In this document: positions 10,780 to 29,657 of the stretch, piece by piece
How the letters are laid out: every line of letters starts with the position of its first letter
Position numbering within the stretch: position 1 is the stretch's first letter
Notes under the pieces: model-generated
Told to the model about the DNA's origin: nothing
Database searches by the model: none
Seen by the model: only the letters and a program-made list of their open reading frames with translations
Assembly: GCA_016929635.1 (NCBI GenBank)
Contig: JAFGIL010000067.1
Location: forward strand, 6,010 to 70,009
Direction: 5' to 3'
Origin: Endomicrobiales bacterium
GTDB taxonomy: Bacteria > Elusimicrobiota > Endomicrobiia > Endomicrobiales > JAFGIL01
DNA: 64,000 nucleotides
Made by a program: the position numbers and the translations under genes

Positions 10780-10914
10780 TTATTTCTCGATTCAATTATT
10801 TCTCATTTCTTGATTTAATGTATCAATAGTTGCAATTTATTCTAAAATGGTGAAAATCTACTATTTTTTACTATAGTTGCCTCATTTTGGATTTTCTGTT
10901 TAATTCTAACACAA

Positions 10915-11505: not shown

Positions 11506-11745
11506 ATTAATGCATCCTTCCTACTTTATCTCAGCTGCACCATTCTAACACAATTTACGTTTTTTATTAATCAATATAATCAGTAATATTAAAGAAAATA
11601 TTGATACATTTACACAAAAAGGTAAACCATGTTTTGCCATATCCACAGTTAGTTTATTCCAAAATTCGAAAAATGGGGACAGCTCACATTTATTCTATCA
11701 CACATTAAAAATATTTCAATGCAAGACCTGACCCTATCTATATTC

Positions 11746-12330: not shown

Positions 12331-12497
12331 TTTTTTTCCTTATCAAATAATACAATTACCATTTTCAAACAAAAATCATATTTAATATTTCAATACTTTA
12401 TTGAACACAACAAGTCATATTGCATCTTAATTCATATAGACAATTTATAGATATTGTCGCAATATCGAATTACTTACCACAACCACTACTTTATTGG

Positions 12498-13487
12498 TTA
12501 TCTAACTTCCAATTCCAGTATTTGCTTATTGTGAGGATCGAAAAAATGTCCTCTTCTAATATCATTCTTTGTCTCTTGGCAATTCCTAGACAAACAAATA
12601 GAATAAGATAAATAATTCATTAATGATACTTGAGCGACAATAGATATACCATCTAAAGCCTTATTAACTGTTATTATATGCCCAGAACGTCGCATACCTG
12701 CTATAGGTTCATCACTTAAAATTGCTTTATCTTTTGGTATAACTAAGGGATAATTAGGTTTATTACCATAACGTATATAATTTCTTATTACGTCAAAATC
12801 TTTGCTCAAGCATATTGCTTTCCCTTTAAAATATATAAAATAATTAAATGCTATCTTTGCCATAACTTTAAATTTGTTTTCACCAATACATTCAGTAATT
12901 TCACAACTAATATCTGTCATTGTTGAATCAGGATCAATCATACCTTCTGTTTTAAAATACTTAAATCCTTTTTCAGCAAATTTCTTATTTATTTCTTCAA
13001 AATCAAATACACCAAATATTCTTGTACTCCCTTTCTTATCAGTTTGATATCCCCTTGCAACTAATTCTTCATTTGTTGGTATTTCACTCCAAAGAAAATA
13101 ATCAAATATATTGTCTTTATTTAAAAAACCAGCCTGTGGAAGAGGAATGGCTTCAATTCTTTGAAGTTGTTCTGAATATCTAGCTTCAATGTATACTCCT
13201 TTAAATGGTTCTTCATGTGCTTTTTCAATTAATCTCTTATTTTTGGTTAATGCCTTAAACTCTTCTTCTGATTTAATATTTTCTTTGAACCTTAATCGTC
13301 CTTCAATAGAATCACGTCCTAAAGATAATTCCAAATCTTTGGAGAAATACTCATTACATGCACTACATACTTCATTATGATTTAAAACAAAAGTATTACT
13401 ACCAAATGTACCAAATGATTGAGGAATAACATGTTCTCTATTGAAACTGTTTTTTTCCTTTAAACAATAAACACACTTTTCATTCAT
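12498..13487 (-). CDS. HNH endonuclease (zinc-knuckle HNH_5 type)
   Basis: 'CVYC.....REHVIPQSFG.....VCSACNEYFS'. Confidence 0.85.
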   Translation of the reverse strand: MNEKCVYCLKEKNSFNREHVIPQSFGTFGSNTFVLNHNEVCSACNEYFSKDLELSLGRDSIEGRLRFKENIKSEEEFKALTKNKRLIEKAHEEPFKGVYIEARYSEQLQRIEAIPLPQAGFLNKDNIFDYFLWSEIPTNEELVARGYQTDKKGSTRIFGVFDFEEINKKFAEKGFKYFKTEGMIDPDSTMTDISCEITECIGENKFKVMAKIAFNYFIYFKGKAICLSKDFDVIRNYIRYGNKPNYPLVIPKDKAILSDEPIAGMRRSGHIITVNKALDGISIVAQVSLMNYLSYSICLSRNCQETKNDIRRGHFFDPHNKQILELEVR

Positions 13488-13578
13488 TTTTGTTGTGTTA
13501 ATCTAATTGATTGTCTTAATATTCACGTCTTATTTTATCTTATTTCAATATTAACTTTCGTTTGTACATTTACACCCA

Positions 13579-13666
13579 GTTAAACCTTAATCTACCCCCC
13601 CCCTTAGGGGTCTTGTTTCAAAATTAAAACAAGGCCAAAGAATGCTTTTTACTTTTCAAGTTCCGA
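13579..13666. repeat. Degenerate direct repeat, copy B
   Basis: partner of 9006-9093. Confidence 0.8.
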
Positions 13667-13893
13667 TAATATCAATTATGGTGATTTATTGAGAAACTGA
13701 TTATCTATTGTATTTTCAATATGTTTTACCAAATTCCTTTCCTAACATGAAGTATAATTGATATTTTTTTGTCACTTTTTTATTCTTAGCACTCTCAATT
13801 TTGTCAGAATCTGCGTTTGTTTGTTCATTTTAAATTATTAAATCATTTTAAAGTTACTAATTTATAATATTAGAATTAATACTTATGATTTTC

Positions 13894-14625
13894 TTATTTC
13901 AAATCAATTTTTGGTATTTTTTCAATATCCTCCTTAATCTCTTTTATTATCTCACTTTTATCTTGGTTTGTGCTAATATTTGATGCTTTATTTTCATTAC
14001 TATTTTTCTCTTGACTATAAAAACAAAAATTATAATTGAATAATACACTAATTCCACCAAGTCCGACTTTACTCCAGTCGGAGTTTGTATTAACATTACT
14101 GTATTTTAATGTGAAACCAACACTTTCATTCGAAATTGATGTTAATAGCTGAATTCCAAAAAATGTCTCTTGCATAGTACTTTTATATCTATCAAAGTAT
14201 AATTGCCTATTCGCTGGCACAAATCCAATGCCACAACCATAATGTAGATATTTCCAAAAAGTATTTTTTTGCAATAAAGAAATCCATACTGGAATTATTA
14301 ACATGGTTTCCTTAATATCATATCTCCCTATATATACTGAATTGCTATATAGTGCAACATTGTTTTCTTTATATGTATCACGATATCTCTCAACTTCCAA
14401 TCTGATTCCTAATTCTTTTTTCCAAATAGTTGTATCAATTCCAAATAAAATATCAACACCATGATATTTCGAAACAACACTATCTACTAAAGAAAAGATG
14501 CCCATTTTTGGACTTATTACCATATAAGTGTCTTTATTACTTATATTACTTAGTTTAGTATTATCTGCATTTAGAGAGAAAAAAGGACATATCAGAATTA
14601 GAAAACATATTAAAATATTTTTCAT
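13894..14625 (-). CDS. Exported protein, probable small outer-membrane beta-barrel
   Basis: Signal peptide from 'MKNILICF..FSLNA' (start moved from 14667); alternating beta-strand pattern ending 'GGISVLFNYNF' plus a charged tail. Confidence 0.55.
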   Translation of the reverse strand: MKNILICFLILICPFFSLNADNTKLSNISNKDTYMVISPKMGIFSLVDSVVSKYHGVDILFGIDTTIWKKELGIRLEVERYRDTYKENNVALYSNSVYIGRYDIKETMLIIPVWISLLQKNTFWKYLHYGCGIGFVPANRQLYFDRYKSTMQETFFGIQLLTSISNESVGFTLKYSNVNTNSDWSKVGLGGISVLFNYNFCFYSQEKNSNENKASNISTNQDKSEIIKEIKEDIEKIPKIDLK

Positions 14626-14790
14626 AGTATTTTTTCCCAAATAATATAACCACACTGAACTAGTCAATGTGGCTATATTATATCCCCTCTATTGATGCTG
14701 ATATTCCCCTTATATGCATATTCATCCCGACTAAATTCTATATCTTTTTAAAAAACAAATCAAATAGTATATCTTCTCTAATTTTAAAAT

Positions 14791-14832
14791 AAAAAAGCCC
14801 GTAGAGTGCATGTCCATACCTTTACTGGGCTA
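14791..14832 (-). terminator. Probable terminator
   Basis: minus strand GCCCAGTA...TACGGGC followed by TTTTTT, just after stop 14847. Confidence 0.55.
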
Positions 14833-14846
14833 AGATTAGTACTTGA

Positions 14847-15416
14847 TTAATACTTCAATGAAATCATAAAGCCCGAGGTGTTGCTTGAATCAGCGTCATC
14901 CCCGGTCAATGTTATCAAAATACCCTGAAGACCAACACCCACATCTATCCTGCTTAATGAATATACCAGTCCAACGTTATAAGGAACGGTTATTCCGTCA
15001 GAATAGACTGAAGCAACGCTTTTTGCTTCCAGTTTCCATTTAGGCGAGAATTCATATCTTCCTGCTAATCCGACTCCCGGGGCTGTTGTAAATCCCGTTG
15101 AATCAGCTTCATATTCAAGCTTTGAAAACGTAACTCCAAGTATCAAATCGCTGCTGAATCCGTATTTCTCGTAGAATTTGTTTTGGGTATAAACCGAGCC
15201 GTAATAATTGCGCTCCGCTGTCCAGGTATCCTGAAAATTAAAAACAGAGATGTCCAATCCAAAATCAAAAAAATTGTCATTCTGCTTTAATAATGAAACA
15301 AATCCAGAATTGTAACCATTTCCAACAGATACCCCGCCATTCAACATAATTTGAGATGCAAAAATGTTTATATTTAAAGCCATCAGGAACAACATCGAAA
15401 AAAGCATTCTATACAT
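14847..15416 (-). CDS. Outer-membrane beta-barrel protein
   Basis: Start moved to 15416 (GGGGAG RBS; 'MYRMLF...IFA' signal peptide); amphipathic strands; terminal aromatic 'GFMISLKY'. Confidence 0.65.
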   Translation of the reverse strand: MYRMLFSMLFLMALNINIFASQIMLNGGVSVGNGYNSGFVSLLKQNDNFFDFGLDISVFNFQDTWTAERNYYGSVYTQNKFYEKYGFSSDLILGVTFSKLEYEADSTGFTTAPGVGLAGRYEFSPKWKLEAKSVASVYSDGITVPYNVGLVYSLSRIDVGVGLQGILITLTGDDADSSNTSGFMISLKY

Positions 15417-15436
15417 AGTGAATCTCCCCAAGGTTA

Positions 15437-16120
15437 TTAGTTTAAAAATCTGGTCGGCCTTGCTGTGATGGCAAATGTCCACCCTGTAAGGTTACTCGCA
15501 GTTGTAGTGCCAACAGGCATATCAAGCACTTTGATATCTAAAACTATATAAGTTTCTGAACCATTTTCTACATTAAAAGCATTAAGATATCCGTTAGCAG
15601 TTGAAAGTGTTATTGTTTCACTTGTCTCAACTATTTGAATAGTTTTGGAAATACTTTTTATTACCCCTACAGAGTTAGGCATTTTATTGAATGTTTTACT
15701 TGTCCCGTCACTAAATAAAAAAGTTACTTTCGGCTGAATGTGTATCCTGATACCCTCATACTGTCCCGCAGAAACATTTACAGGATCAGTGATGCGAATC
15801 GGAGTTGGGTCTGTAGTAATAGTAATTTCCTGCAAAGTATTTAAAACAGTTTCCCACTCCTCTCCGGTTTTTGAAATTGCAATTTCATCAATAAATACTG
15901 TTACCGACTCTATTCTCCCGCTCTGATAACTATCTAAAGTTTTTCTGCTGATGGCTGAACTGCTCCCAGGCTGTTCACCGCTATAAAATGAAATAGCGCC
16001 ATAGTTTGTTCCCAGCGGGTCAGCCGGGCTGGAAGCCCTTTTTGAAGAAGTATAAGGATTTTTCTCACAGCTTGCGGCAAAAAACAACAATAAAACACCA
16101 AATAACGCAAATTTTTTCAT
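15437..16120 (-). CDS. Lipoprotein, DUF4382-like beta-sandwich
   Basis: Lipobox 'FAASC'; 'IESVTVFIDEIAIS...WETV', 'AGQYEGIRIHI', 'ETYIVLDI'. Confidence 0.65.
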   Translation of the reverse strand: MKKFALFGVLLLFFAASCEKNPYTSSKRASSPADPLGTNYGAISFYSGEQPGSSSAISRKTLDSYQSGRIESVTVFIDEIAISKTGEEWETVLNTLQEITITTDPTPIRITDPVNVSAGQYEGIRIHIQPKVTFLFSDGTSKTFNKMPNSVGVIKSISKTIQIVETSETITLSTANGYLNAFNVENGSETYIVLDIKVLDMPVGTTTASNLTGWTFAITARPTRFLN

Positions 16121-16130
16121 ATTTACCCCC

Positions 16131-17471
16131 TTATTTATTTTCTAGTACGATCAATCGCTGCTCTAAATCTTCTATTTTTGTTTGTTGTCCTTTTATGACC
16201 TCTAATAATATAACCGATAATTTACTGTATGCAATAGATTTATAGCCATCTCTATCTGTATAGACAAGTTCCGGGAATTGCTCCTCTAATTCCTGGGCAT
16301 TTAAACCGACCTGTTCTCTATCACAAAAACTCAAGTCTCTTTTTTCTACTTCTGCAAGTATTTTAGCTTCTTTTTCTGCCTTTACATCTTTCTCTAAGTT
16401 CAATTCCTTTAGTTTTTCTACTCTTGCCGAATATTCTATATCCTTAAGTTTATTTTTATTAAATTTATATTTTATCGCTGATAACTGCATTACCCTGCTC
16501 TTGATATCACCGGATAGATTCTCAACCTGCTCTTTCAGTCTTATATCTGAATCTTCGTAACATTGTATACATTGGATATAACCCTGAACATCAAAATGAA
16601 TTCCTGGATTTGTTTTATTAACACCTATATCTCCACTAGTAGCAAACCACATCCTTGTACCGCCGTTTACGTAAATATCAAGGGGGTATTCACCCAATGT
16701 ACCCATCTGAACTATATTGTCAGGATAACCTGCTGCCTGCATAAATCCTACCGCCTCATTGTCATCCTCTAACCTAATCGTAGGGCTGTTTGCACTGTAT
16801 ACGTGAAGTTCTGCACTCGGATTATCTGTGCCTATTCCTACTTTACCGTTCGGCTGTATCCTCATTCTTGAGGCGCTATTCAAATAAAAATCCAGGCCTT
16901 GATTGCCCAGCGTCCCTATCTGCAGTAAATTATCACTGGGACCTACTGCCTGCATAAATCCAATTACTTCATCATCATCTTGCACATATAATGAAGGATT
17001 GTTGCCGTACACATGCAATTTTGCAGATGCAGTAGTTGTTCCTATGGCAACATTTTCTAATACTGTAAGATCCTTCTTTACATTAAAATCCGACACACTC
17101 CCTAAAGCATAACCAGATGCCCCTATGGCCTGCTTTGGAGTCATCTCATTTTCGCTGTCTATTGCTATTCCCACTTCATATTCTGCATTAAAGTCCAACC
17201 CATCTAAATTAGCAGTGTCAGCTCCAAGTGTTACATTAAATAACCCATCATCTCCGATTGTAACTCCATGATTCTCTGTCTGACCCCACAACGCCTCACT
17301 ACTGCTTTTGTCATAAAGCATGAACTTCAATACATGATACCCTGTAACCGGATCACCCAAACTGTCAGTCAGTTTACCCTGCAGATTGATTTTCTTCTCG
17401 CCTGCATAAACTCTTGATACCATAAGTAATAGAAACATTACCGCTACTACCCTTACAATTTTTGTGTACAT
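16131..17471 (-). CDS. Exported fibre-like protein with C-terminal peptidase S74 intramolecular chaperone
   Basis: Start moved to 17471 (AAGGAGG RBS; signal peptide 'MYTKIVRV...VYA'); 'NLQGKLTD..G.P' N-domain; 'V(A/G)IGT..(A/P)SA.LHVY' repeats; 'SDIRLKE', 'GLNAQE', 'FPELV', coiled-coil tail. Confidence 0.88.
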   Translation of the reverse strand: MYTKIVRVVAVMFLLLMVSRVYAGEKKINLQGKLTDSLGDPVTGYHVLKFMLYDKSSSEALWGQTENHGVTIGDDGLFNVTLGADTANLDGLDFNAEYEVGIAIDSENEMTPKQAIGASGYALGSVSDFNVKKDLTVLENVAIGTTTASAKLHVYGNNPSLYVQDDDEVIGFMQAVGPSDNLLQIGTLGNQGLDFYLNSASRMRIQPNGKVGIGTDNPSAELHVYSANSPTIRLEDDNEAVGFMQAAGYPDNIVQMGTLGEYPLDIYVNGGTRMWFATSGDIGVNKTNPGIHFDVQGYIQCIQCYEDSDIRLKEQVENLSGDIKSRVMQLSAIKYKFNKNKLKDIEYSARVEKLKELNLEKDVKAEKEAKILAEVEKRDLSFCDREQVGLNAQELEEQFPELVYTDRDGYKSIAYSKLSVILLEVIKGQQTKIEDLEQRLIVLENK

Positions 17472-17565
17472 TTTCTGTACCTCCTTAAGATTATTTTGCA
17501 AAATCCATTCTAAATCCATTTCTAAGATAGTAAAGGATTAGCCTTCTAACTATCTTTATTTATAG

Positions 17566-18216
17566 CTATTTTATAATATTAGTATTTTTACTTTTTTCAA
17601 TTTTATACTTGATATCTGTGACAAAATGTTCATGAAATAATTTACCATTATCGTATTCCTGCTGTTTCACAATCCAATGATTAGGCGCAAAATAATATAT
17701 ATTTTCCTGCAATCCCCGAACATCCGCAGCATTAGCAATATATGAATCCTTTATTACAATACAGTCCTTAAATATTTTTGCCGGCGTTTCTACAGTTGCA
17801 GTTGTTCCCAACACTTCATATGTATGCTCATCATCCCTTAAAATGTGCTTCCACTTCTTACCCTTTTTTAATGGCAATTCAAGATATATCCATTTTTCTT
17901 TAGACCATCCAAGAATAAAGAATATTTCATCTTTATTTATAACAAGCTTTTCATCACTAGGTGAAATATCACCATAGACATGAACATTATAGTTATTGTC
18001 GTTATCTTTCTTAAACTCATAAATTTCATCTTTGAATGTTTCTGTTCCTTTATAATAAAGGACGAGTTCTTTGCCCATATCAAAAAATTGCTTCGTCATT
18101 TTTTTGTCTCCTGGGTCATTCACTTTTTTTTGTATGTTCTTAGCATCACATGCTGAAAAGCATAAACATAGAACTACTAATAAAAATATTGATTTGACAG
18201 TCATCGTTTTTCTCAT
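17566..18216 (-). CDS. Lipoprotein, candidate immunity protein
   Basis: Lipobox 'FSAC'; starts 12 bp after the RHS toxin stop with GGAGG RBS; 'TVETPAK.F.DCIVI...YYFAP...IVK' beta-sheet. Confidence 0.6.
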   Translation of the reverse strand: MRKTMTVKSIFLLVVLCLCFSACDAKNIQKKVNDPGDKKMTKQFFDMGKELVLYYKGTETFKDEIYEFKKDNDNNYNVHVYGDISPSDEKLVINKDEIFFILGWSKEKWIYLELPLKKGKKWKHILRDDEHTYEVLGTTATVETPAKIFKDCIVIKDSYIANAADVRGLQENIYYFAPNHWIVKQQEYDNGKLFHEHFVTDIKYKIEKSKNTNIIK

Positions 18217-18228
18217 ACTTATGCCTCC

Positions 18229-21200
18229 TTATTTTATTATTATATCAGGATAATAACCGTTATTGGATTTAAAACTCTGCAAATGACCTATTAATGAATT
18301 TATATCCTGGTTTTGCATTCGGGCACAGCCCCGTGTATTCATCAATTGATGTTTTGGCGCCCAAGGATTAGCAAGTTTACTGCCACCACCATGTATATCT
18401 TTTCCACCACTACCCTTTAAACCAATATATCCAGTTCCATACGCACTGCCGTCAGGACTATAGTTGGAGTTTACTATTGGTTTTGATTTTGATCCTTTTA
18501 ACACATGGTCAATTTCATAAACACCTTTTTCCTGTGTCCCATATTTCGCTTCAGCAGAGAAGACTTCATTATTGTTATTATCATACATTTTAATAGTATT
18601 CCCAGCCTGGTCATATTCAACCCTAGCAGCAGAAGCTGACCGATCAACACCTAAAGCATCCTGAGCCTGAGCTACCTGTTCCTCCTGTTGTTGAACATTA
18701 TTCCCTGTAGAAGCGTTTGCTACAGCATTCACTCCATACGCAAGCATGCTCATTCCAAAAGCAGTAAGAAATGCTTCCCCTTCTTTTCCTTTTTCCGCCC
18801 CGCTCATAGCCATAAGTCCAGATAGACCCGCACTTCCCATAGTACCCCATATCCCACCACTCATTCCATCTGCAACTCCTGCCATAACAAAACTAGAACC
18901 AAAGCTTAATATTCCTTGTCCCACCATATCCATATTCCCACTCATCAGACCTGCCATTGCCTGTGTGCCGCTCATCATCATATTTGCCGTACTGTAAACC
19001 TCCATAGCCGTAGCAATAAATTTAGCTGCATAGATTAAACCAATCCAAATATGGCCTGATGGATCTGTATATATTATGGGATTATTCCTGCAATATGCAT
19101 ACCTGTTTAAACTTTGTGGATCATACGGGCTTTGAATAATCGTATCAGGGGTTAAGAAAATACCAAGAGCAGGGTCATAGTATCGAGCTCCGTAATAATA
19201 TAATCCAGTATTATCATCTAAACGCTGCCCTGTGAATTTATGTTCATTGTCGGGTGAGCCTGATTCATAACATACAGCCCCAAATGGTAAATAATCCGTA
19301 TTTTTTACTATATCACTGCCGTTTGATATACTCCTAACGCTTCCAAGATGATCATGGTGAAAATAATACAATCCTGTTTTTGTACTATCAATTGCAACAC
19401 GTTGGTCACCTGCATATATATAATTTATTTGTTCATCCAAAATGCTGTTAATATAAGTTTCCTCATAGATTGTTCCAATATAGACAGTTGACTGGATTGC
19501 CGATTGCCCGGGAATGACAGAAGAAATGGTTTTTTTCACACGTTGTCCTTGCCAGTCATATGTGAATTCAACTACCTGACCTTCTGCAGTTACTATCTTT
19601 ATAGGCTGGTTATTAACATTATAAAATATTCTCCTTCCATTAAGCACATCCATGTTTCCATTCCCATCTTTGTGCATTGTATACATATGCTGTTTTAGGC
19701 CATCTGCTATTTCCTGCTCTTGGCTAGAGCTGTAACCCAACAGTTCTTCTTCCGTAATCTCATCCTTATCAGGAGTTGATGCCTCTTCCCCACCCTCATC
19801 CTCAGAAGGTGGAATATAAAATGAATTAATATCACACACTCCGCCTTGATATCCCCATACACATACTGTTGCGCTGCTTATACTTTTACCAACCGTATTC
19901 TCAGCTATTGTCTGAACCGCATCCTTGTTCCCACCTGAACTTATACCGCCGTTCCATCCTACACGCAAAGGACCTGATATATTCGCATCTAACTGATTGT
20001 ATATATTCACAACTAATTCGGGACTCCATTCCGATTCGTTGCTGTTTTCATCTACTGCTTTTACTTTAACAAGATAAATATAATCTGTTGTCCATGTATG
20101 AGTTGCAATTATCTGCTCCCCGCTAGTATAAAAACCTGTTTCTTCAAGCCCAGAACCGTCATCCCAATCTATAACATACTTCATCTGGTCATAATCCATA
20201 TCAACTGCTTTAAATTTAAAACTATAAGACACATTCTTTTGACCATAAAAATCGCCAGGACCTGACACTGATTCAGGCATGTATGGCTGATTTGGATTTA
20301 AATTCGGCGCAGACTCATATAAGCTTGTTATCTCCGTTGAGCTTAATGCTACACTGTAAATGTTCACTTCGTCCATTATTCCCGTGAGTCCTGTTCCCAA
20401 GATAACAGGTTCCTGCGTCGTATCTATTGTTCCGCTTGCAGACACTTCTGCTTCCAGTTCACCATTAAAATAGAGCCTCATATTTGAGCCATCGTACGTC
20501 ATTGCAAGATGCATCCAAGTATTCAATCTGGCATCTATGTCTTTAGTTATATTTGCTGTCTTAATGCCTCCTGATAAATATAGCTTTCCTTCAACACTGC
20601 TACCTGTGATTTTTCCAAATCTGAATGAATTGCTTTTTGAAATAACATAATCACTACTGTTTGACTGGGGACGCACCCAGAACTCTACAGTTATCTGTTC
20701 TTTCGGGCTTAATGTTTTCGAATTTTTAATTTCAGCTGTCGAGCTTCCGTTAAATAATAATCCTTTACCTATTTTTCCATTATCATACTGTTGTGTTCCG
20801 CCATAAAAATTTAAATCCGACGTATCTTCGAAACCTCCGAAATATATATCCTGGCAATCAGTTTCCTTAGTAATATTGCCCAGAGTATCATAAGAATACG
20901 TTTTTGTGCCGTAACCGTAAATGTCCTGTGCCTGTGTAAGCCTGTATAAATCATCATATGTAAAATCCTGGTGAGTTGAGGCAAGATTGTCTGTTATCCT
21001 TGTGATGTTCCCAACATTATCATACTGATATTCATAATCCATATATTTTGTTTCGGATGCATTCTTGGTTATTAACCTGGTTAACATTAAAGTGTCTGAA
21101 TTATATGTATATGTGGTTCTAATACCATTGCCATATAGCAACTCAGCTAGCTTACCTGGTAGAGTTGTACTGGGGTCAAGGGCTGCATAAGTAAAAGTAC

Positions 21201-24200
21201 CTTGGGGATTTTTTACGGCTGAAAGGGTACTCTTATTATAATCAAATTTTATGGTTTTTCCCGTGTCATCTGCTTTAGGATACGTCAAAGTTTTTTCTCT
21301 ACCCACAGCATCGTACGTATTGCTTGAAATATACACTATACCGTCTATTGTGCGGGTTTTTCTTATATTGTTTCCAAGATTGTCATATTCAAACTCAGTT
21401 ACTCCAGCTAAATCCTCAACTTTCACAAGCCTTCCAGTAGAATACTCCACAGAAAAGTCATCGTAATAATAAGTAGTATTCCCGTCAAGCGTAGATTTGA
21501 TAACCAGCCTGTTTAATCTGTCATAAGTCATAGTTGTTTCCTGATCTTTCTCGTCTTCCTGCCATATAAGGTTCCCGTTTGAATCATAATCATATTCCCA
21601 AGTACCCATTTGTAGATCTGTCATCGATATTTTTCTTCCAAGATTGTCATATGTTATAGTTGTTTCCTGATTCTGAGAGTTTGTTATTTCTATAAGATTA
21701 CCTAAGACGTCGTATTCATATGTGGTTGTATATTTATCATAATTATCATTATTGTATTCATCTACTTGTACAATATTCCCATATGCGCCTCTATGAAATG
21801 ATTTCTGGTTTCCGTTCTCATCCGTTATTGTTTCTTCCCATCCATAGTACACAGTTGTAGAATACGTGCTGTCAGGGTTTGTTACTTTTGTCACTCTTCC
21901 CAGTGCGTCATATTCTGTTGTTGTTTTTGGTTTACCTGTTGGGGGTGTTTCATAGCCAGTTGAAAAGTCATCAACATATGGCAAATAAGCATTTTCTATT
22001 AATCCCCTACAATTATAAACTACATCCCCTGTTACAATCTGATGGTTATCAAAATTCGGAGACCTGGTCTGCATAGTCCTTCCTAAACCATCTAAAAATT
22101 TATATGTATCCAAGGTTTCATTTGAATTGTGATATACTTTCTGTTTAGTTACTATCCTATGAGGCGGAGTTCCGATATTATATGTATAGCTTAACGTAGG
22201 GACAAAGTAGGTATCCTGATCATTTGGACCCCTTAATTCTATAACTCTGCCAAAATTGTCATATTCGTAAGTAGTCTTCTGGCCATTTGGATCAATATAC
22301 TCATTTACAAGCCAGGTAAAAGTCCCATTATAAGTGTAGTATTTACTATGACCAAGTACGTTTGTTACTGTGGATACAAACTGATGATATGTTTCATCAT
22401 AATCTTTGTGAATATAGTTTCCATCCGTACCGCTGGAATTAACCCATTTAGGATCATACTCATCCGTAATGTTGCCATATTTATCATATTTGAATATTGC
22501 AGTAGAAAATACAGTCGAATAAATCCACCTTTGTATTTCAGTAAGATTAGTTTTACCATCATTTATATCTTCATATACGTATAACGTTTCCTGTTCCTTA
22601 TTCTGCCCTACAACTAAACCTTCATATACAACTTCACGTGTTTTTAAACCTACAATATAATCATCTTCATTAGTGCTGAATTCCCTATATACAGTTTTTT
22701 CATCATTATCAGTCCTTACTTCACCGTAATTTTGTATTACTGTAACATTACCGTAATTATCATAAGTATATTCAACGCACGTTTCCTTTTCTATTTCCTG
22801 GTTTGCATAAACATAACTTTCAGTGCGAATAAGTTCAGGTAAGTATACTGCATAAAGAGTGCCGCACGGCTGACTGGAATCATATGTATTTTTAGCACGT
22901 GTTAACAACACTGCGCTTGAATTATACTTTGAAACTTCATCCACTTTTCCTTTAAAAATATTAATGTCATCTTCGGGATCATCATCTTGCAAGAATTTGG
23001 TTATGGTATAGTTACCCTCTGCTTCTATTGTCTTTACCTCGCCAAATCCCAAGAACTCTTTACTTTGCCAGGGGTTTCTGTCATATAAACCATTAGAATA
23101 CTCATAGTTAACTGTAACACAATTATCCATTCCGTCATTTGTAGCAATTGAGGTTGCTATATGCGCTACAAAGGGTAGTCCCTCACAATCATCTTTATTA
23201 TAAACAGAATAATTAATATCTGTTGTACTTCCTAGTGAATTTTCCACTTGATCCATTAGGTTTATTGCAGGGCCATCTGTTATTAATCCCCATGTCTCAT
23301 TATAATATGTCTGTCCACCTTTCTTTCCATAGCCATAATATGCAATGTCTTTTTTCCCATCTCCGTTAAAATCACCAGCACTCCACGAATAATTATGTTC
23401 AGCCCATGTAGTTGTATCAAGTTCAGCCCAGTCTGAAAATTCAAAATAACCATTTTTATTTATGCCAATAGATAATTTATGATAATGTCCACTCAACCCA
23501 TTATTGTAACTTGAAACATCTAGTAGCCCATCTCCGTTGAAATCTCCCAGGAGAACATAGTTCCATATTTGATATTCTGACCAACTGGTTTTTTCAAATG
23601 TATTATCACCTTTATTTAACCCTATCCAATGTTTGTCAACATCGGATCTATAATAATATATATCGCTTAAGCCATCTGAATTGAAATCTGCCACTGCCCA
23701 ATACCATTGTGAATCTCCTCCAAGTGGCGGGGCACTCCCAAAATCTGTCCCTGTCGGGTTTATCCAACTGAAACTATTCTGTCCATTACTTACACCTACG
23801 CATAAAGTATTATCTTTATAAAAAAAGATATCACTGGCACCGTCCCCATTTATATCTCCCACACTCCATGTTCCTGTATTAAAAGGAGCATCACCCAATG
23901 ATACCGATTCACTCCATGAGCTAAATGTAAAACTCTCATCACCGTTATTGATTCCTACTTCCGTTACATAAAGAAAATGCCCTGTATAAGGAGGGTTTGG
24001 CGGGCCAGGGACCCATACTTTAGAATAAAAACAAATATCACTATATCCGTCATTGTTAAAATCACCAACTCTAAATGTCTTTGATATTTCAGTCCAATAA
24101 GAGCTAAAACTCGAATCAGTATACCATACACTGAAAGTAAATGTATCGCTTCCATTACTTAAACCAACGTATATATCACCTGTATTATTGTTCATAAAAC

Positions 24201-25509
24201 ATATATCATATCTTCCATTTTTATTAAAATCACCTACACTAAAACTCTCTGAATTATATACAGCTTGATTGGCCCAATTTGTAAAGCTCATAGTTCCATT
24301 ACTGTATTCTCCAACAAGAATTTTTGTTTCTGCAGCTCTATAGAAACACACCTCATCTATGCCATCTCCATCAAAGTCTGCTGTTTTCCATGTGCGATTG
24401 AACGGATCGCTGCCAAAATCATCTGTGTTCCAGTTACCAAATGTCATTGTTTCAGGTATATCCTGATAACTAAATTGTGTTTCGGGTAAAGAATTATCAT
24501 CATTCAATCCAATTCTTTTAATTGATGAAAGCATTGATAAACCAGCGGAGTTTGTAATGTAACTAAATTCATATTTAGATATTAAAGCAGCGGGTGATTG
24601 AAGTTTATAAATCTCTATTGATTTTAGACGTTTATCTATTCTTTGCTCAATACCGGGGTTATATTTCGTTATAACATCTGGACGAGCAGATGCCTCTAGA
24701 TAAAATTCAATTTTATATTTTGGATTTTCATCAATATCTTTATTATCATTTAAATAACGACCAGTATATTTTATAATATCTGAGAGCACAGGTTCTCCTT
24801 CCCCACCACCCCCAGAAGTGCTTGATGTCCTTGGAGAATAATATACAACTGTGTTTGTTTCTTCGCTGTATATGTTTTCAAAAGTCATATAGTTACGATT
24901 GGTATCTTCTATTTCTGATAATCCCCAGTGAAATACCTGGTATGTGCTTGAGTCTATCGTTTTTGTGCTGATTTTAAGAAACGTGTATTTCTTTCCTGTT
25001 TTATCTTTTGCCTCCCATGTCTTATCATCAGGATAGTACTTAAATTCCATAAAAGAACCTTCTATCTGAGTCCTATATTCCCAGTAATCATCCGCTGTTC
25101 CGTTAATCCTTACCAGTTCGCTACTTTGTCCTCCAAAATTAACAATAAACGTATCTGAGGTTCCATTTGAATCATCATCATATTTTGGAACGCCATTGGA
25201 TGTTTTTCTTTGAATAGAACCCATTGACAAACTCCATCCCTGACCACATATCCCATTTCCTGATTGGGAGTTATAAATAAGTTGTAAATTCGGTTGTATA
25301 CCGTTGCGACCAGAGGGTACTTCTATAGGATATGAATAGGTGAATGCTCCTGTATACAGTGAAACGCTGTTTGAACCTGTAGGAGCAAGGTTTCCTGGAT
25401 TTGGACCTGCTGATTCAACTGCAAATGCTATGTTAGTGATTATTGTTAATGCAAGTACTAAATAGAAAACAAAAAGGAAGGTTTTGAGGATTGGCTTCTT
25501 TATTTTCAT
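18229..25509 (-). CDS. Giant RHS/YD-repeat polymorphic toxin (signal peptide-SpvB-FG-GAP-TcdB_midN-YD-LamG-PKD-RHS core-toxin tip)
   Basis: SpvB 'TGAFTYSYPIEVPSGRNGIQPNLQLIYNSQ..NG..GQGWSL'; many 'GDFNGDG..D' repeats; 'EFLGFGEV'; YD repeats; 'FTGQRLD..TGLYYYGARYYDP.LG.FL.PD...LNRYAYCRNNP..YTDPSGH'. Confidence 0.95.
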   Translation of the reverse strand: MKIKKPILKTFLFVFYLVLALTIITNIAFAVESAGPNPGNLAPTGSNSVSLYTGAFTYSYPIEVPSGRNGIQPNLQLIYNSQSGNGICGQGWSLSMGSIQRKTSNGVPKYDDDSNGTSDTFIVNFGGQSSELVRINGTADDYWEYRTQIEGSFMEFKYYPDDKTWEAKDKTGKKYTFLKISTKTIDSSTYQVFHWGLSEIEDTNRNYMTFENIYSEETNTVVYYSPRTSSTSGGGGEGEPVLSDIIKYTGRYLNDNKDIDENPKYKIEFYLEASARPDVITKYNPGIEQRIDKRLKSIEIYKLQSPAALISKYEFSYITNSAGLSMLSSIKRIGLNDDNSLPETQFSYQDIPETMTFGNWNTDDFGSDPFNRTWKTADFDGDGIDEVCFYRAAETKILVGEYSNGTMSFTNWANQAVYNSESFSVGDFNKNGRYDICFMNNNTGDIYVGLSNGSDTFTFSVWYTDSSFSSYWTEISKTFRVGDFNNDGYSDICFYSKVWVPGPPNPPYTGHFLYVTEVGINNGDESFTFSSWSESVSLGDAPFNTGTWSVGDINGDGASDIFFYKDNTLCVGVSNGQNSFSWINPTGTDFGSAPPLGGDSQWYWAVADFNSDGLSDIYYYRSDVDKHWIGLNKGDNTFEKTSWSEYQIWNYVLLGDFNGDGLLDVSSYNNGLSGHYHKLSIGINKNGYFEFSDWAELDTTTWAEHNYSWSAGDFNGDGKKDIAYYGYGKKGGQTYYNETWGLITDGPAINLMDQVENSLGSTTDINYSVYNKDDCEGLPFVAHIATSIATNDGMDNCVTVNYEYSNGLYDRNPWQSKEFLGFGEVKTIEAEGNYTITKFLQDDDPEDDINIFKGKVDEVSKYNSSAVLLTRAKNTYDSSQPCGTLYAVYLPELIRTESYVYANQEIEKETCVEYTYDNYGNVTVIQNYGEVRTDNDEKTVYREFSTNEDDYIVGLKTREVVYEGLVVGQNKEQETLYVYEDINDGKTNLTEIQRWIYSTVFSTAIFKYDKYGNITDEYDPKWVNSSGTDGNYIHKDYDETYHQFVSTVTNVLGHSKYYTYNGTFTWLVNEYIDPNGQKTTYEYDNFGRVIELRGPNDQDTYFVPTLSYTYNIGTPPHRIVTKQKVYHNSNETLDTYKFLDGLGRTMQTRSPNFDNHQIVTGDVVYNCRGLIENAYLPYVDDFSTGYETPPTGKPKTTTEYDALGRVTKVTNPDSTYSTTVYYGWEETITDENGNQKSFHRGAYGNIVQVDEYNNDNYDKYTTTYEYDVLGNLIEITNSQNQETTITYDNLGRKISMTDLQMGTWEYDYDSNGNLIWQEDEKDQETTMTYDRLNRLVIKSTLDGNTTYYYDDFSVEYSTGRLVKVEDLAGVTEFEYDNLGNNIRKTRTIDGIVYISSNTYDAVGREKTLTYPKADDTGKTIKFDYNKSTLSAVKNPQGTFTYAALDPSTTLPGKLAELLYGNGIRTTYTYNSDTLMLTRLITKNASETKYMDYEYQYDNVGNITRITDNLASTHQDFTYDDLYRLTQAQDIYGYGTKTYSYDTLGNITKETDCQDIYFGGFEDTSDLNFYGGTQQYDNGKIGKGLLFNGSSTAEIKNSKTLSPKEQITVEFWVRPQSNSSDYVISKSNSFRFGKITGSSVEGKLYLSGGIKTANITKDIDARLNTWMHLAMTYDGSNMRLYFNGELEAEVSASGTIDTTQEPVILGTGLTGIMDEVNIYSVALSSTEITSLYESAPNLNPNQPYMPESVSGPGDFYGQKNVSYSFKFKAVDMDYDQMKYVIDWDDGSGLEETGFYTSGEQIIATHTWTTDYIYLVKVKAVDENSNESEWSPELVVNIYNQLDANISGPLRVGWNGGISSGGNKDAVQTIAENTVGKSISSATVCVWGYQGGVCDINSFYIPPSEDEGGEEASTPDKDEITEEELLGYSSSQEQEIADGLKQHMYTMHKDGNGNMDVLNGRRIFYNVNNQPIKIVTAEGQVVEFTYDWQGQRVKKTISSVIPGQSAIQSTVYIGTIYEETYINSILDEQINYIYAGDQRVAIDSTKTGLYYFHHDHLGSVRSISNGSDIVKNTDYLPFGAVCYESGSPDNEHKFTGQRLDDNTGLYYYGARYYDPALGIFLTPDTIIQSPYDPQSLNRYAYCRNNPIIYTDPSGHIWIGLIYAAKFIATAMEVYSTANMMMSGTQAMAGLMSGNMDMVGQGILSFGSSFVMAGVADGMSGGIWGTMGSAGLSGLMAMSGAEKGKEGEAFLTAFGMSMLAYGVNAVANASTGNNVQQQEEQVAQAQDALGVDRSASAARVEYDQAGNTIKMYDNNNNEVFSAEAKYGTQEKGVYEIDHVLKGSKSKPIVNSNYSPDGSAYGTGYIGLKGSGGKDIHGGGSKLANPWAPKHQLMNTRGCARMQNQDINSLIGHLQSFKSNNGYYPDIIIK

Positions 25510-25836
25510 GTTACACCCCTATATTGTGTATTATGGGTAGTCTGGATACAGGATAGATAAAGCGTTCCTATTCTATCTAATTAACCTGAAAATGTCAAAT
25601 AAATTTTTTCTACATTTTTTGGCACAATTTTACTAAAAATAATGCCCCTAAGCCCCTCTGTTTTCACCAATCCTTGCGCTTACATATAATATGACAAACG
25701 AATGTTGATTTTCTTCCCTCATTGTAAAAAAATCTCCCCTTATTCTAAGTGGGGGAGATAGTAAAAGAGGCTTAATTTCGGAGGTATCCCTGAGAAATAA
25801 TTTCCCTGATAATACTTAAAAAAGAAAATATCAAAC

Positions 25837-25870
25837 AAAAAAACCACATCTCTTTCAAGATATGGTTTTA
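25837..25870 (-). terminator. Rho-independent terminator
   Basis: minus strand AAAACCATATCTTGAAAGAGATGTGGTTTTTTT. Confidence 0.65.
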
Positions 25871-26026
25871 TTAATTGATTTTTCAATATTTTTTGTTAAC
25901 AGGTCCCTTAATAGACGATTTTATAATTATGCCTTATGATAGCATATGCATAAATCAAACAGCAAATTACCTGCAAATATCATAGAGGAAAGTTAGCGAA
26001 AGGATAAATTACTAATTTAATTAGGT

Positions 26027-26722
26027 TTAATACCATTCTATTGTAGCAGTATATGCACCTATGCCAGGATTCCAGTTTGTGATACCTATATACAATTCAC
26101 CAGGCATGACATTATTTGTTATAAATTCATCTCCAATTCCATAACCTGTAGTTTTAGAGGAAGATATCTTAAAAACAAGAGATTGACAAGGACGTTGACC
26201 ATCAAACCATGAATAGGCAATATGTGTATCACTAGTATCACCTTCGGGACCAGTTGTTCCATAATATGAAGAAGTAACTTGTCCTGTACCAGTCATCTTT
26301 ATTTTATCCCCTATCTGTATATATAAATGTGTATTGGTTGGATCTGCTGCCTGTACAAACGGTATATAAAAGGATTGTAATAGTCCAATATTACTTTTTT
26401 TTACTTCTCCATATACAGTTATTACTTTCAGCTCTCCTGGTCTTATACCTGATGAGGGCAACGTAAAAGTGATTGAAGTATCACTCCAAGAAGTAATAGC
26501 TGTTAACTCAATGTCGTTAAGATACAATTTGCTACTTCCTTGTGAATCCCCAAAATTTTCACCTGTAATGGTTACAGATTCGCCCATAACCATAGGACTT
26601 GGAGAAACACTGTTGATACCAGCATTATCATTCGATGCACCAGTAATCATTCTATTTATTAGCGGACGCTGCTCGCATCCTAAAAATAACAATATAATAA
26701 TTAACACAAAATATTTCTTCAT
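26027..26722 (-). CDS. Lipoprotein with IPT/TIG domain and PA-IL(LecA)-like C-terminal beta domain
   Basis: Lipobox 'FLGC'; IPT 'INSVSPS....GESVTITGENFG...G.S.LYLN......SWSDTSITFTLP'; C-terminal 'GDKIKMTGTG...GELYIGI.N....GAYTATI'. Confidence 0.7.
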   Translation of the reverse strand: MKKYFVLIIILLFLGCEQRPLINRMITGASNDNAGINSVSPSPMVMGESVTITGENFGDSQGSSKLYLNDIELTAITSWSDTSITFTLPSSGIRPGELKVITVYGEVKKSNIGLLQSFYIPFVQAADPTNTHLYIQIGDKIKMTGTGQVTSSYYGTTGPEGDTSDTHIAYSWFDGQRPCQSLVFKISSSKTTGYGIGDEFITNNVMPGELYIGITNWNPGIGAYTATIEWY

Positions 26723-26726
26723 TCTA

Positions 26727-27746
26727 TTACCAATTATATGATAATCCGCCGTTTATTGTAATTCCTGTCAAATCAGTTTCTTTCATTAAATAATGGTTAT
26801 AAAGTATTTCAATCTGAAACCCTAAATTATAACTTTGTGTTAAATCCAGACCTATTCCAACCTTCATTAATGGGTCAAAAGAGATTTCAGATACAGTTTT
26901 ATTTAACATACTGGATGAAACAGCGCTTTTTCCATATGACATTCCTAAACCAGTTTTGCTATATATTTCAAAAACAAATGGAAGAGATAAATAGTGCTGT
27001 ATATTGAAAGAAGAGGGTATGTATTCTATTTTATAATCTGATTGACTATTAGAGTCTTTAGTTCTTTCAATTGTAAAATAACCAATTTCTAGTTCTGTAT
27101 AAGTATTGTCTATTTTAATAAACGGCATTCCTTGCTTTCTAAATGAAATGTTATAATTTAATGAGTTTGAATCTACGTTTTTTATACCTCCTAAAAAAAT
27201 AAAACTTCCTATATTAGTTCTTATACAGTTTTTTGTTATTCTTCTTCTAGAATGTTTTCTGGATTCTGTTTTCTTTTTAGTCATAGACTCTGCTATTAAT
27301 ATGGCTAAATCATTTGCTTTATTTGGTAACTCTTCCTGACTCTTACAACTCACTTTTTCTGAATGAACTATTTTGCCCGTTTCTATATCAACAACACTGG
27401 CGGTTATATAGTACTGTTTTGCAAATACTGTTAAATTACCAATAATCATTTTTTGAACATTCAGCAACTTTCCCATTTTTACAGCACATTTATAATCCGT
27501 GCATCCGCTTAATTGAAAGTTTTGTTCGGCTAGTACTATATCCATATTACCGCGTTCCAGCACATTGAAAAGATTGGTATTTACTAGACCTGTACGAAAG
27601 AAATTACTAATTGTTACCGCATCTGATAAAGGCACATTTTCCGCAGAAAACTCAGCAACACCAACATTCAGAACGTCATCAGCTGCAATAACTTTATTTG
27701 TAACTGCTAAAATAGATATTAAAACTATTAAGATTAATTTTCTCAT
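26727..27746 (-). CDS. CsgG/HfaB-like domain fused to an outer-membrane beta-barrel
   Basis: Signal peptide; 'VGVAEF', 'FNVLERGNMDIVLAEQNFQLSGCTD..CAVKMGKLLNV', 'VDIETGKI'; C-terminal strands ending 'GGLSYNW'. Confidence 0.8.
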   Translation of the reverse strand: MRKLILIVLISILAVTNKVIAADDVLNVGVAEFSAENVPLSDAVTISNFFRTGLVNTNLFNVLERGNMDIVLAEQNFQLSGCTDYKCAVKMGKLLNVQKMIIGNLTVFAKQYYITASVVDIETGKIVHSEKVSCKSQEELPNKANDLAILIAESMTKKKTESRKHSRRRITKNCIRTNIGSFIFLGGIKNVDSNSLNYNISFRKQGMPFIKIDNTYTELEIGYFTIERTKDSNSQSDYKIEYIPSSFNIQHYLSLPFVFEIYSKTGLGMSYGKSAVSSSMLNKTVSEISFDPLMKVGIGLDLTQSYNLGFQIEILYNHYLMKETDLTGITINGGLSYNW

Positions 27747-27920
27747 TTGTTTTAGATTATATCATATTAGCTATAAATCTCAAAACCTCTTAAAAATTAT
27801 CTTTTTGAAGTTTAAAAAGCACGATTTATAATTAACATGGAAGGGTAAGGCTGGGTGTCAAGCATTCCCCATACTATACTATATAAGCTCTATTTGAATT
27901 CCCCCCATAGGGGGTGGTAA

Positions 27921-27943
27921 AAAAGTTTGTCTAAAGTTTGTCT
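27921..27943 (+). promoter_or_regulatory. Putative integrase arm-type binding sites (right)
   Basis: aaaagtttgtctaaagtttgtct, same orientation as 5267-5289. Confidence 0.7.
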
Positions 27944-28076
27944 ATGTATAGCCAGAAATACACATAAACAGCCAGTAAATCAACTTTTTAAGCCTTGTTA
28001 TATAAGATTAGGTTTTATGGTATGTTTCCGTCTTAAAAGAAGTGTTAAGCAGAGGGCTTTTTGTTGGTTTATGGTT

Positions 28077-28151
28077 TGGGCTCGGATAGGATTCGAACCT
28101 CTAACCTTTTGATTCGTAGTCAAACGCTCTATCCAGTTGAGCTATGAGCGC
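28077..28151 (-). pseudogene. tRNA-Arg(ACG) copy with divergent 3' end (right att site)
   Basis: Identical to the intact tRNA through TTCGAATCCT, then ATCCGAGCCCA instead of CTTGAGCGCG, which disrupts the T and acceptor stems. Confidence 0.85.
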
Positions 28152-28188
28152 ATTTTTGCTGCAGAATTTGCTTTATTTCAGGGTGTCA

Positions 28189-28217
28189 ATTATACAAAAA
28201 AATGAAAATCTTTTCAA
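28189..28217 (-). promoter_or_regulatory. Host sigma70 promoter of the tRNA locus
   Basis: TTGAAA-N17-TATAAT on the minus strand, ~40 bp upstream of the right tRNA copy. Confidence 0.8.
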
Positions 28218-28298
28218 TTATCAGCAAGAATTTGTAATATTAATACTATTCTTTATTTATTGTATTTTCAATACTTTCTGATTTGACGAGTCTTATAA

Positions 28299-29657
28299 TT
28301 ATGTAATCTTATATTTAGTCAGCAACCTGTACAATTTAGCTCTGCTTAAGCCCAAAGACTTTGCGGTGTCCACTTTGTTCTGCTTGAACTCATTTAATGT
28401 TTCAATTAAAACGTTTTTTTCGAAATCTTCAACCAGTTTTTTCATGCTCTTTTTGTCAACCGGGGAAAAAGCTGTCTTTGGCTGGGAACTAAACTCCAAA
28501 GGAAGGTCCTGCGGCATGATTGTTTCGCCTGATGATATGATTATGGCACGCTCGATTATGTTTGCAAGCTCCCTGATATTGCCGGGCCAGTCATATTTCA
28601 TTAAAATGTCAATTGATTCTTTTTTTACTTTCTTCTTTGTTGTGGTTGTTACCTTACTGTTTGCAATAAAATGGTTAACCAAAATGGGTATATCCTCTCT
28701 TCTTTCCCTTAAAGGCGGCAGATGAACCGGAAAGACATTAAGCCTGTAGAAAAGGTCTTTCCTGAAACTTCCCTTGCTCACCTCTTCCTTTAAATCCCTG
28801 TTGGTAGCGGCAATAATCCGAACGTCAACCTTAATCTCCTTGTTGCTTCCCAGCCTCCTGAAATTCTGAGTCTCTATAATACGCAATAACTTTGACTGAA
28901 GAGACATTGGCATCTCTCCAATCTCATCAATGAACAACGTGCCTCCGTCAGCCACTTCGAACAATCCTCTTTTTACCGTCGAAGCGTCCGTATATGCACC
29001 TTTTTCATGGCCGAAAAGTTCGTTCTCCAGCAGGTTCTCGGGGATGGATGCACAGTCAACTATCAGGAACGATTTATCGGACCTTAAACTGCCTTTATGG
29101 ATTGCGCGCGCTGCAAGCTCTTTACCTGTACCGCTTTCCCCTGTTATAAGCACAAGTGAAGGCGTTTTTGCGACTTTTTCTATCAGGCCAAAAATCTGTT
29201 TTATCTTATCGCTTTTTCCCACCATCTCAAAATATTTGTCTTTCAGCTGCAGCTCTTCTTTTAAAAATATGTTTTCTTTGTTGATAAGCTTTTTTTCGTA
29301 AGCTTTATGGATAATAACTTCCAGCTCATCAAGGCTTATCGGCTTGGTCAGATAATCGTAACATCCTGTCTTCATGGATTCGATTGCGGTAGGCACGTCA
29401 GCCTGGCCCGTAAGTATAATAAACTCGGAAAGGGTGTTGTGCTGTTTTAATTTTTTCAGCAGCTCAAGCCCGTTAATGTCCGGCAACCCTATGTCAATAA
29501 CGCCAACGTCAAACTCCTTATGCTCAACAGCGCGGATTACGTCTTTTCCTTTTTCAAACAGTTCAACGTCGTATTTCTCGACCGGAAAGGATTTTTTCAT
29601 AAGCTTAAGGAACTGGGTCTCGTCATCAACTATAAAGAGAGATATTTTCTTAGCCAT
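28299..29657 (-). CDS. NtrC-family sigma54-dependent response regulator (REC-AAA+-HTH)
   Basis: REC 'IVDDE'; 'GESGTGKE'; 'ELFGHEKGAYTDA'; 'LFIDEIGE'; 'FRKDLFYRLNV'; 'WPGNIREL'; Fis-type HTH. Confidence 0.95.
   Translation of the reverse strand: MAKKISLFIVDDETQFLKLMKKSFPVEKYDVELFEKGKDVIRAVEHKEFDVGVIDIGLPDINGLELLKKLKQHNTLSEFIILTGQADVPTAIESMKTGCYDYLTKPISLDELEVIIHKAYEKKLINKENIFLKEELQLKDKYFEMVGKSDKIKQIFGLIEKVAKTPSLVLITGESGTGKELAARAIHKGSLRSDKSFLIVDCASIPENLLENELFGHEKGAYTDASTVKRGLFEVADGGTLFIDEIGEMPMSLQSKLLRIIETQNFRRLGSNKEIKVDVRIIAATNRDLKEEVSKGSFRKDLFYRLNVFPVHLPPLRERREDIPILVNHFIANSKVTTTTKKKVKKESIDILMKYDWPGNIRELANIIERAIIISSGETIMPQDLPLEFSSQPKTAFSPVDKKSMKKLVEDFEKNVLIETLNEFKQNKVDTAKSLGLSRAKLYRLLTKYKIT

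Follow-up and report, generated by a model that had tools for sequence, protein, structure and literature searches.

A putative 22.9-kb integrative island of reversed polarity at the single tRNA-Arg(ACG) gene of an Endomicrobiales bacterium

Two tRNA-Arg(ACG) copies and the interval between them

The stretch of DNA analyzed here (the window; 64,000 nt of contig JAFGIL010000067.1 from an Endomicrobiales bacterium) contains an intact tRNA-Arg(ACG) gene, a tyrosine integrase gene (int) that ends just upstream of it, and a second, truncated tRNA-Arg(ACG) copy farther upstream, all on the minus strand. A repeat search revealed that the two tRNA copies share a perfect direct repeat of 74 nt (100% identical) at 5131-5204 and 28088-28161 on the minus strand, with a spacing of 22,957 nt. 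Alignment of both loci on the tRNA strand showed that the repeat consists of a 10-nt leader (CAGCAAAAAT) followed by tRNA nt 1-64, and that the two loci are unrelated on both sides outside this block. What is repeated is the 5′ and not the 3′ part of the tRNA gene, and identity is lost after nt 64, at a point three bases inside the T stem's 3′ strand. We refer to the two blocks as the left attachment site (att) copy, on the int side (5131-5204), and the right att copy, on the side of a host-type promoter (28088-28161).

The left tRNA copy (5121-5194, minus strand; 5120-5194 in the ARAGORN output) matched the full Rfam tRNA model (positions 1-71, 71.9 bits). The right copy (28077-28151, minus strand) consists of tRNA nt 1-64 followed by the tail ATCCGAGCCCA (28077-28087), and Rfam gave only a local match to it, covering model positions 8-63 (41.4 bits) without the acceptor stem. 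Its minimum free energy fold likewise lacked an acceptor helix (-20.7 vs. -26.4 kcal/mol), and a canonical cloverleaf (acceptor stem of 7 bp, regular T arm) was not found at 28077-28151. The assembled genome, a 77-contig draft that is 90% complete, contains one intact tRNA-Arg(ACG) gene, the left copy, plus the right-copy fragment; its remaining arginine tRNAs are TCG, CCG, TCT, and CCT. These results agree with a preliminary description of the locus, made from the sequence alone, which had placed the repeat over the leader and the first 64 nt of the tRNA, judged the stems of the right copy to be broken, and asked how many other tRNA-Arg(ACG) genes exist; there is no redundant copy in the assembly.

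Between the two copies, int (5237-6301, minus strand) is an intact open reading frame (ORF) for a 354-aa tyrosine integrase (PF00589, 103.8 bits against a cut-off of 27.1, 1.1e-29; Int_N PF24624; phrog_1, 2.6e-72). Residues R190, K215/K218, H274, H278, H300, and Y310 were invariant, and R277 nearly so, among 11 aligned sequences, and we take these to be the catalytic residues of the R...K...H-x-x-R...H/W...Y motif. The int stop codon lies 42 nt from the 5′ end of the intact tRNA on the same strand, as had been described before, and an excisionase-like HTH_17 gene (xis; 6298-6531, minus strand) precedes int, its stop overlapping the int start. The displaced 5′ fragment and the intact tRNA gene share one orientation, the fragment being the upstream one, and the integrase gene separates the two.

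The interval 5205-28087 (22.9 kb) also differs from its surroundings in composition and content. The GC profile fell to 27-31% over 8-14 kb, compared with approximately 40% in the flanks, and the 15 ORFs of at least 100 aa within it all share the strand of the tRNA. Ordinary genes flank the interval, namely a GH65 gene on the left and genes for a sigma-54 response regulator and a histidine kinase on the right. The motif RGACAAACTTT had four exact matches in the 64 kb, all at the two ends of the interval and arranged as two tandem pairs, where 0.13 matches were expected; four matches were reached in 0 of 100 shuffles. One pair (AGACAAACTTT twice; 27922-27943, minus strand) lies near the right end, and the other (GGACAAACTTT/AGACAAACTTT; 5268-5289, minus strand) lies within the 3′ end of int, where it encodes the integrase tail GQTNFGQT. 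These pairs plausibly represent arm-type integrase sites flanking the core. The candidate arm repeats within int are translated as a variable C-terminal tail of the protein, and tandem repeats of other sequences occupy the same place in the int 3′ ends of relatives at loci L032, L038, L042, L039, L040, L044, L046, L149, L067, L075, and L102.

Taken together, the repeat anatomy, the GC profile, the position of int and xis, the arm-type repeats at both ends, and the recurrence of this layout in relatives (see below) support reversed polarity, bearing out the inverted att arrangement that the preliminary description had proposed. We consider it highly probable that a 22.9-kb integrative island occupies the interval and that its tyrosine integrase inserted it, in reversed polarity, into the single tRNA-Arg(ACG) gene through site-specific recombination. 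Because a 5′ fragment stands upstream of the intact gene with int between them, the attachment site of the element (attP) would read int, leader, tRNA nt 1-64, tail ATCCGAGCCCA, and cargo; that is, attP would directly follow the int stop codon, with the leader and tRNA 5′ part first and the non-functional tail behind. A crossover within the shared segment would yield two products. At the int end, the leader and 5′ part brought by the island would be joined to the 3′ end and downstream flank of the host gene, giving one functional gene, so that the intact tRNA at 5121-5194 would combine an island 5′ part with a host 3′ end. The other product, at the far end, would consist of the host's promoter and 5′ part followed by the island tail, a dead copy pointing at the cargo. 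Judging from relatives, the most likely place for the crossover would be the anticodon stem-loop, and the extension of the block to nt 64 would reflect either a crossover in the T loop or an attP that retains more of the captured tRNA. The rebuilt tRNA would be transcribed from within the island, through TGTTATAAA at 5217-5225, a promoter in the int 3′ end, or read-through from xis-int, and the native unit of promoter and tRNA would be regained on precise excision.

A classical polarity, with the mobile DNA outside 5205-28087 and the fragment stemming from some other event or from local duplication, is favored by nothing except the general rule that it is the 3′ part of the gene that tRNA islands duplicate. 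The piece displaced here is a 5′ fragment that stands upstream of the intact gene and is oriented like it, and the interval contains int, xis, the arm repeats, and the GC trough, which leaves this explanation with hardly any credibility.

The preliminary description had also suggested that the odd tail might be a relic of a different tRNA, implying a target switch. This suggestion was not borne out: a search with the 23-nt T-arm-plus-tail pattern GGTTCGAATCCTATCCGAGCCCA, allowing up to two mismatches, matched this genome only among a sample of 401 genomes of the phylum.

Recurrence and polarity of the layout in related integrases

An integrase search of 104 genomes from the host's order yielded 12 loci in six genomes. 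At 10 of the 12, a full tRNA gene directly follows int on the same strand, in the order xis, int, tRNA; these tRNAs are Arg-ACG (two loci), Leu-TAA, Leu-CAA, Glu-CTC (four loci), Ser-CGA, and Ser-GCT. At one of the other two loci int is followed by a tRNA-Glu 5′ fragment, and the last has no tRNA nearby. The distance from the int stop to the tRNA was 1-42 nt at the eight loci of the close clade that have a tRNA. Reversed polarity is the norm in this integrase clade, across at least five tRNA identities.

Both ends could be mapped in six more islands, and the repeat was always the 5′ part of the tRNA only. The same genome contains a second such island of 15.3 kb (L042, contig G000:C38, 108424-123732), with a perfect repeat of 42 bp comprising 1 nt of leader and tRNA nt 1-41. 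Its int, preceded by xis, encodes a protein 57% identical to the window integrase and is followed by tRNA-Leu(CAA), and the other repeat copy lies 15.3 kb upstream. The repeats in the remaining islands comprised 2 nt plus nt 1-43 in G005 (on two contigs), 2 nt plus nt 1-42 in G004:C15, nt 1-39 in G004:C17, tRNA positions 0-40 at the reversed locus L084, and positions -14 to 40 at the reversed locus L129. The block thus ends in the anticodon stem-loop (nt 39-43) in all six. Four other contigs (G016:C90, G005:C47, G004:C7, and G016:C208) were too short for mapping of a second att copy.

These islands bear on the reliability of the assembled layout. A 74-bp repeat is a possible point of mis-joining, the k=31 Logan contigs stop inside it, and the assembly is a 77-contig draft; an excised circle carrying attP and an empty, intact tRNA gene might therefore have been joined artificially through the repeat. 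However, the integrated layout is present on single contigs in G000:C38, G004:C15, and G004:C17, and at L084 and L129 in other assemblies. Even in the case of a mis-joined contig, attP would still place the tRNA 5′ part behind int, and the reversed logic would hold; swapping the 3′ ends across the repeat changes the integrated or excised state and leaves the attP design as it is. We regard such an artefact as very improbable. An apparent 17.6-kb joint was disregarded, one of its sides being just 21 nt long. In run X1, Logan unitigs over 28088-28144 had a depth of 32-52, compared with 9-10 in the flanks, which is more than expected from two copies and probably reflects identical tRNA k-mers of other organisms in the sample.

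In G005, a TadA-like deaminase gene lies right after the intact tRNA-Arg(ACG) (L032, G005:C318, 636-1115, minus strand), which marks the host side of that island. Deaminases of the TadA-like family edit A34 of tRNA-Arg(ACG). This neighbor matters for another explanation, namely that the island brought a complete tRNA-Arg(ACG) of its own (the left copy) and inactivated the host gene, comparable to tRNA-dependent lysogeny of phages. The intact tRNA gene does abut int, and, according to PMC10865867, there are phages that replace the host tRNA gene they destroy. Against this, the two copies cease to be identical within the tRNA, at nt 64, the DNA from the tRNA 3′ end onward is host-like in GC content and runs into the GH65 gene, and in G005 the tRNA is followed by the TadA-like housekeeping gene. 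The repeats of the six other reversed islands also end inside the tRNA, at nt 39-43, as fits a crossover within the gene. Import of a complete tRNA gene is accordingly a remote alternative to the exchange of 5′ parts.

Further observations in the host's order concern stacked or earlier insertions. In G004:C17 (12663-31633; L052, L043, and L046), 11 nt separate the end of a second int from the tRNA-Glu 5′ fragment displaced in the first island, an arrangement that looks like a tandem array; no third att copy was found within the 40 kb examined. Upstream of tRNA-Arg(ACG), both L013/L029 (G001:C11) and L033 (G007:C36) appear rich in repeats, with short tandem repeats (TTAGACGG twice) in G001, a tRNA-start-like remnant (ATGCGCCAATAG) in G007, and a 36-nt internal tRNA fragment 2.7 kb away. 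These features may be traces of other insertions on the 5′ side.

In the wider integrase family, a single-protein integrase scan of genome_contigs returned no close relatives. An alignment-based scan of the same collection gave 536 relatives, of which the best 80 (27-39% identity, from many phyla) were kept, and a second alignment-based scan, of metagenome_contigs, gave 498, of which 80 were kept. Both samples are best matches to a query of reversed polarity, and most polarity labels rest on the tRNA strand alone. Among the 80 from genome_contigs, the tRNA was on the same strand as int in 31 and on the opposite strand (the classical layout, in which the tRNA 3′ end faces int) in 31; 17 had no tRNA and 1 had no room for one. 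The corresponding numbers in metagenome_contigs were 23, 19, 26, and 12. The pooled 160 distant relatives thus included 54 with the tRNA on the int strand and 50 with it on the opposite strand.

The repeats mapped at classical loci (L073, L089, L091, L103, L105, L127, L130, L190, and L195) extended from tRNA positions 28-35 to the 3′ end, and the mapped repeats agreed with the strand-based labels. Since repeats of both polarities were mapped, the family appears to use the anticodon stem-loop region in either orientation. An IQ-TREE analysis of 92 integrases (a short search, unrooted) required at least 12 polarity changes among the 73 labelled rows and placed the window integrase in a clade of nine rows with 100% support, all reversed. 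Integrases of opposite polarity could be close to each other: those of L067 (reversed) and L081 (classical) shared 66% identity over 344 aa, and those of the end-mapped loci L129 (reversed) and L103 (classical) shared 44%. Both polarities are common and switch repeatedly in this family, and they are about equally common in our sample.

Several results weigh against the proposed integration event. No empty site and no circle junction was found, and both host flanks, when compared with 40 relatives, matched only the tRNA, the flank DNA not being conserved. The exact 46-nt junction pattern had no matches in metagenome_contigs. In the likely source run, Logan contigs are interrupted within the 74-bp repeat and did not confirm linkage across it. 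In G001:C25, no 5′ fragment was present within 40 kb. ARAGORN, a permissive finder, still reported the right copy as tRNA-Arg(acg) at 28076-28152, which leaves formal room for residual function of that copy. The identity block ends at nt 64 here vs. nt 39-43 in the six other reversed islands, which makes the crossover site uncertain. Finally, two scans revealed no convincing full promoter upstream of the rebuilt tRNA.

Promoters, the displaced fragment, and the cargo

A host-type promoter-like site, TTGAAA-N17-TATAAT, is located at 28189-28217 on the minus strand and faces the right copy, as previously described. It matched 11 of 12 consensus positions, and 37 nt separate the end of its -10 element from the first tRNA base of the fragment. 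By eye, tRNA-Arg(ACG) genes of relatives have TTGACA/TTGACT-N17-TAAAAT at a comparable distance. At the int end, a simple scan identified a single promoter-like element between the int stop and the intact tRNA, the extended -10 candidate TGTTATAAA at 5217-5225 (minus strand), which the preliminary description had also singled out; a sigma-70 scan of the same segment listed nothing. With the simple scan, promoter candidates upstream of the rebuilt tRNA were obtained at five of nine loci of relatives and at none of L042, L040, L044, and L046. The gap of 1-42 nt between int and the tRNA in the close clade implies that the tRNA promoter often lies inside int or that the tRNA is co-transcribed with int. 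By eye, a ATTGAAAAnTCA-like motif recurs approximately 20-35 nt before the tRNA at L039, L040, L044, L042, L038, and L032, and in the window at approximately 5208-5216; the motif may serve as a -35 element or bind a protein.

From this arrangement, it is plausible that expression of the rebuilt tRNA depends on transcription from the island and that the host promoter at 28189-28217 drives the CsgG-like gene or other cargo. As tRNA-Arg(ACG) is single-copy in the 90%-complete assembly, redundancy leaves the predicted dependence in place. An imprecise deletion removing the int-proximal copy would destroy the only tRNA-Arg(ACG) gene and so might penalize such loss. Two metatranscriptome runs of the same study contained next to no matching sequence words, and a comparison of runs X1-X3 with 8401-28400 yielded no RNA coverage.

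The first cargo gene past the displaced promoter encodes a CsgG-like protein (26727-27746, minus strand; PF03783, 1.1e-10). No terminators were predicted near either tRNA copy, the hairpins obtained by folding were weak (z = -1.2 and -1.9), and no terminator-like site was found between the fragment and the CsgG-like gene. Just upstream of this gene lies a further promoter-like site, TTGAGA-N16-TG-TATAAT (27756-27783, minus strand), matching 11 of 12 positions with the TG present. Over the six mapped reversed islands counted (the window island and five others), the direction from the displaced promoter toward the tRNA is shared by 61 of the 64 ORFs that have at least 100 aa; of 54 ORFs in seven classical relatives, 41 follow the direction of int. 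The nearly unidirectional arrays of the reversed islands are suggestive, the counts being small and drawn from related elements.

The same anatomy could also be read with the displaced copy as a working or processed RNA, for example a leader cleaved by RNase P/Z that releases a cargo mRNA made from the strong host tRNA promoter, the reversal having been selected for promoter capture. In the ARAGORN model of the right copy, the acceptor stem is moved to -1 and forms six of seven pairs, with a C.C mismatch and a mostly unpaired T stem; this shifted stem, the lack of a terminator-like site before the CsgG-like gene, and the ORF orientations given above would all suit such a role. A host tRNA promoter driving element genes is, moreover, documented for ICEKp1 (PMC13023037). 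The CsgG-like gene, however, has a strong promoter-like site of its own, the ORF nearest the fragment in G000:C38 points the opposite way, and the ORF counts are subject to the limits just stated. We therefore consider a processed leader unlikely and retain the dead copy left by integration as the preferred reading of the fragment.

A broader proposal is that reversal is a selected strategy and not a rare accident. If, in this widespread family, attP abuts the int stop and recombination takes place in the anticodon stem-loop, which is symmetric, polarity would be labile and about half of the members reversed; reversed elements would then form near-unidirectional arrays from a captured strong host promoter to a single-copy, essential tRNA whose expression only the element can provide, making imprecise loss lethal. 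We offer this proposal tentatively, as one that is possible but on balance doubtful.

The rest of the cargo also lies on the minus strand. Next to the CsgG-like gene are genes for an IPT/TIG-domain protein (26027-26722) and a polymorphic-toxin-like protein of 2426 aa with RHS repeats, an SpvB-like domain, and FG-GAP repeats (18229-25509), as assigned by domain searches. This module (18229-27746), whose large protein also matches Laminin_G_3, resembles a polymorphic-toxin locus, and the small ORFs of no known family after the RHS protein could be immunity genes. Further genes of no assigned family, one with a tail-fibre-like C-terminus, lie between the RHS gene and the gene for an HNH-domain protein (12498-13487; domain search). 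A GajA/OLD-like AAA ATPase gene (9190-10779; GajA, 2.8e-28) represents defence-type cargo; together with two ORFs of no known family and the HNH gene (neighbors at 10915-13487), it lies in the part of the island with the lowest GC content. The ATPase, the HNH protein, and their neighbors may constitute a defence module, although no GajB-like partner was identified beside the ATPase gene. A direct repeat of 69 nt (77% identical) beginning with CCCCCCTT occupies intergenic positions 9025-9093 and 13598-13666.

Comparison with known systems

Islands in tRNA genes are usually explained as safe for the host: the 3′ end is rebuilt and the gene is kept on its own promoter. Island-finding logic and prediction of the host attachment site (attB) lean on this 3′-end rule, and the reversed layout bears on att-site prediction and the choice of integrases for genome engineering. 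It also bears on how a mobile element can gain control of an essential tRNA and how cargo expression may be wired to the integration state.

The arrangement, though uncommon, is less novel than the preliminary description implied, since integration at tRNA 5′ ends has already been published. Recombination with the 5′-distal part of a tRNA is called "considerably less frequent" in PMC6563490, which cites Zhao and Williams (2002) for bacteria; by its title and this citation, their element (J Bacteriol 2002, 184:859) is a bacterial case that uses the 5′-distal tRNA part and reverses the usual target orientation, like the island described here. A 5′ fragment located upstream of the tDNA passes the configuration filter of Islander (PMC4383910). 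We found no literature on frequent polarity switching within one bacterial integrase family, within an incomplete coverage of the literature. The window element is thus a further case of a known, uncommon mode of 5′-end integration, and the point added here is made at the level of the family, in which polarity flips are frequent.

A close parallel in tRNA usage is the pTN3-like group of Thermococcales (Cossu et al. 2017). These archaeal integrases use the tRNA gene's 5′ half as attB, and the full tRNA is rebuilt away from its original promoter, as in the window, and is said to be then expressed from the integrase promoter (PMC8371274; figure legend in PMC5495485). A situation like that of pTN3 is said to be "seldomly encountered in bacteria" (PMC8371274). 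Unlike the window element, pTN3-like elements carry attP inside int, so that integration splits the gene. The window int is one intact 354-aa ORF that ends 42 nt upstream of the tRNA, and the integrase is not of the "suicidal" pTN3-like or SSV type. The xis gene and candidate arm-type repeats further set the island apart from pTN3-like elements and give it a lambda-like bacterial design.

Among bacterial elements, the arg2 islands of Klebsiella pneumoniae (integrase clade I.d) similarly lie upstream of tRNA-Arg, with a repeat formed by the 5′ acceptor strand and the D arm (bioRxiv 10.1101/2020.11.02.365908). Their repeat ends in the D-loop, unlike those described here, which run through the anticodon arm in relatives (nt 39-43) or to the T arm in the window (nt 64). 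The classical relatives in the same family, with attP abutting the int 3′ end and blocks starting at the anticodon stem, resemble the integrases with a symmetric sublocation in the anticodon loop (Williams 2002, as given in PMC8371274). They are the mirror image of the window element: they supply the tRNA 3′ part and keep the host promoter. ICEKp1 offers a parallel for expression, as the host tRNA promoter transcribes into the integrated element and ties expression to the integration state (PMC13023037). In ICEKp1, which has classical polarity, the tRNA promoter drives int, whereas in the window element the displaced promoter would face cargo at the far end and the tRNA would depend on the element.

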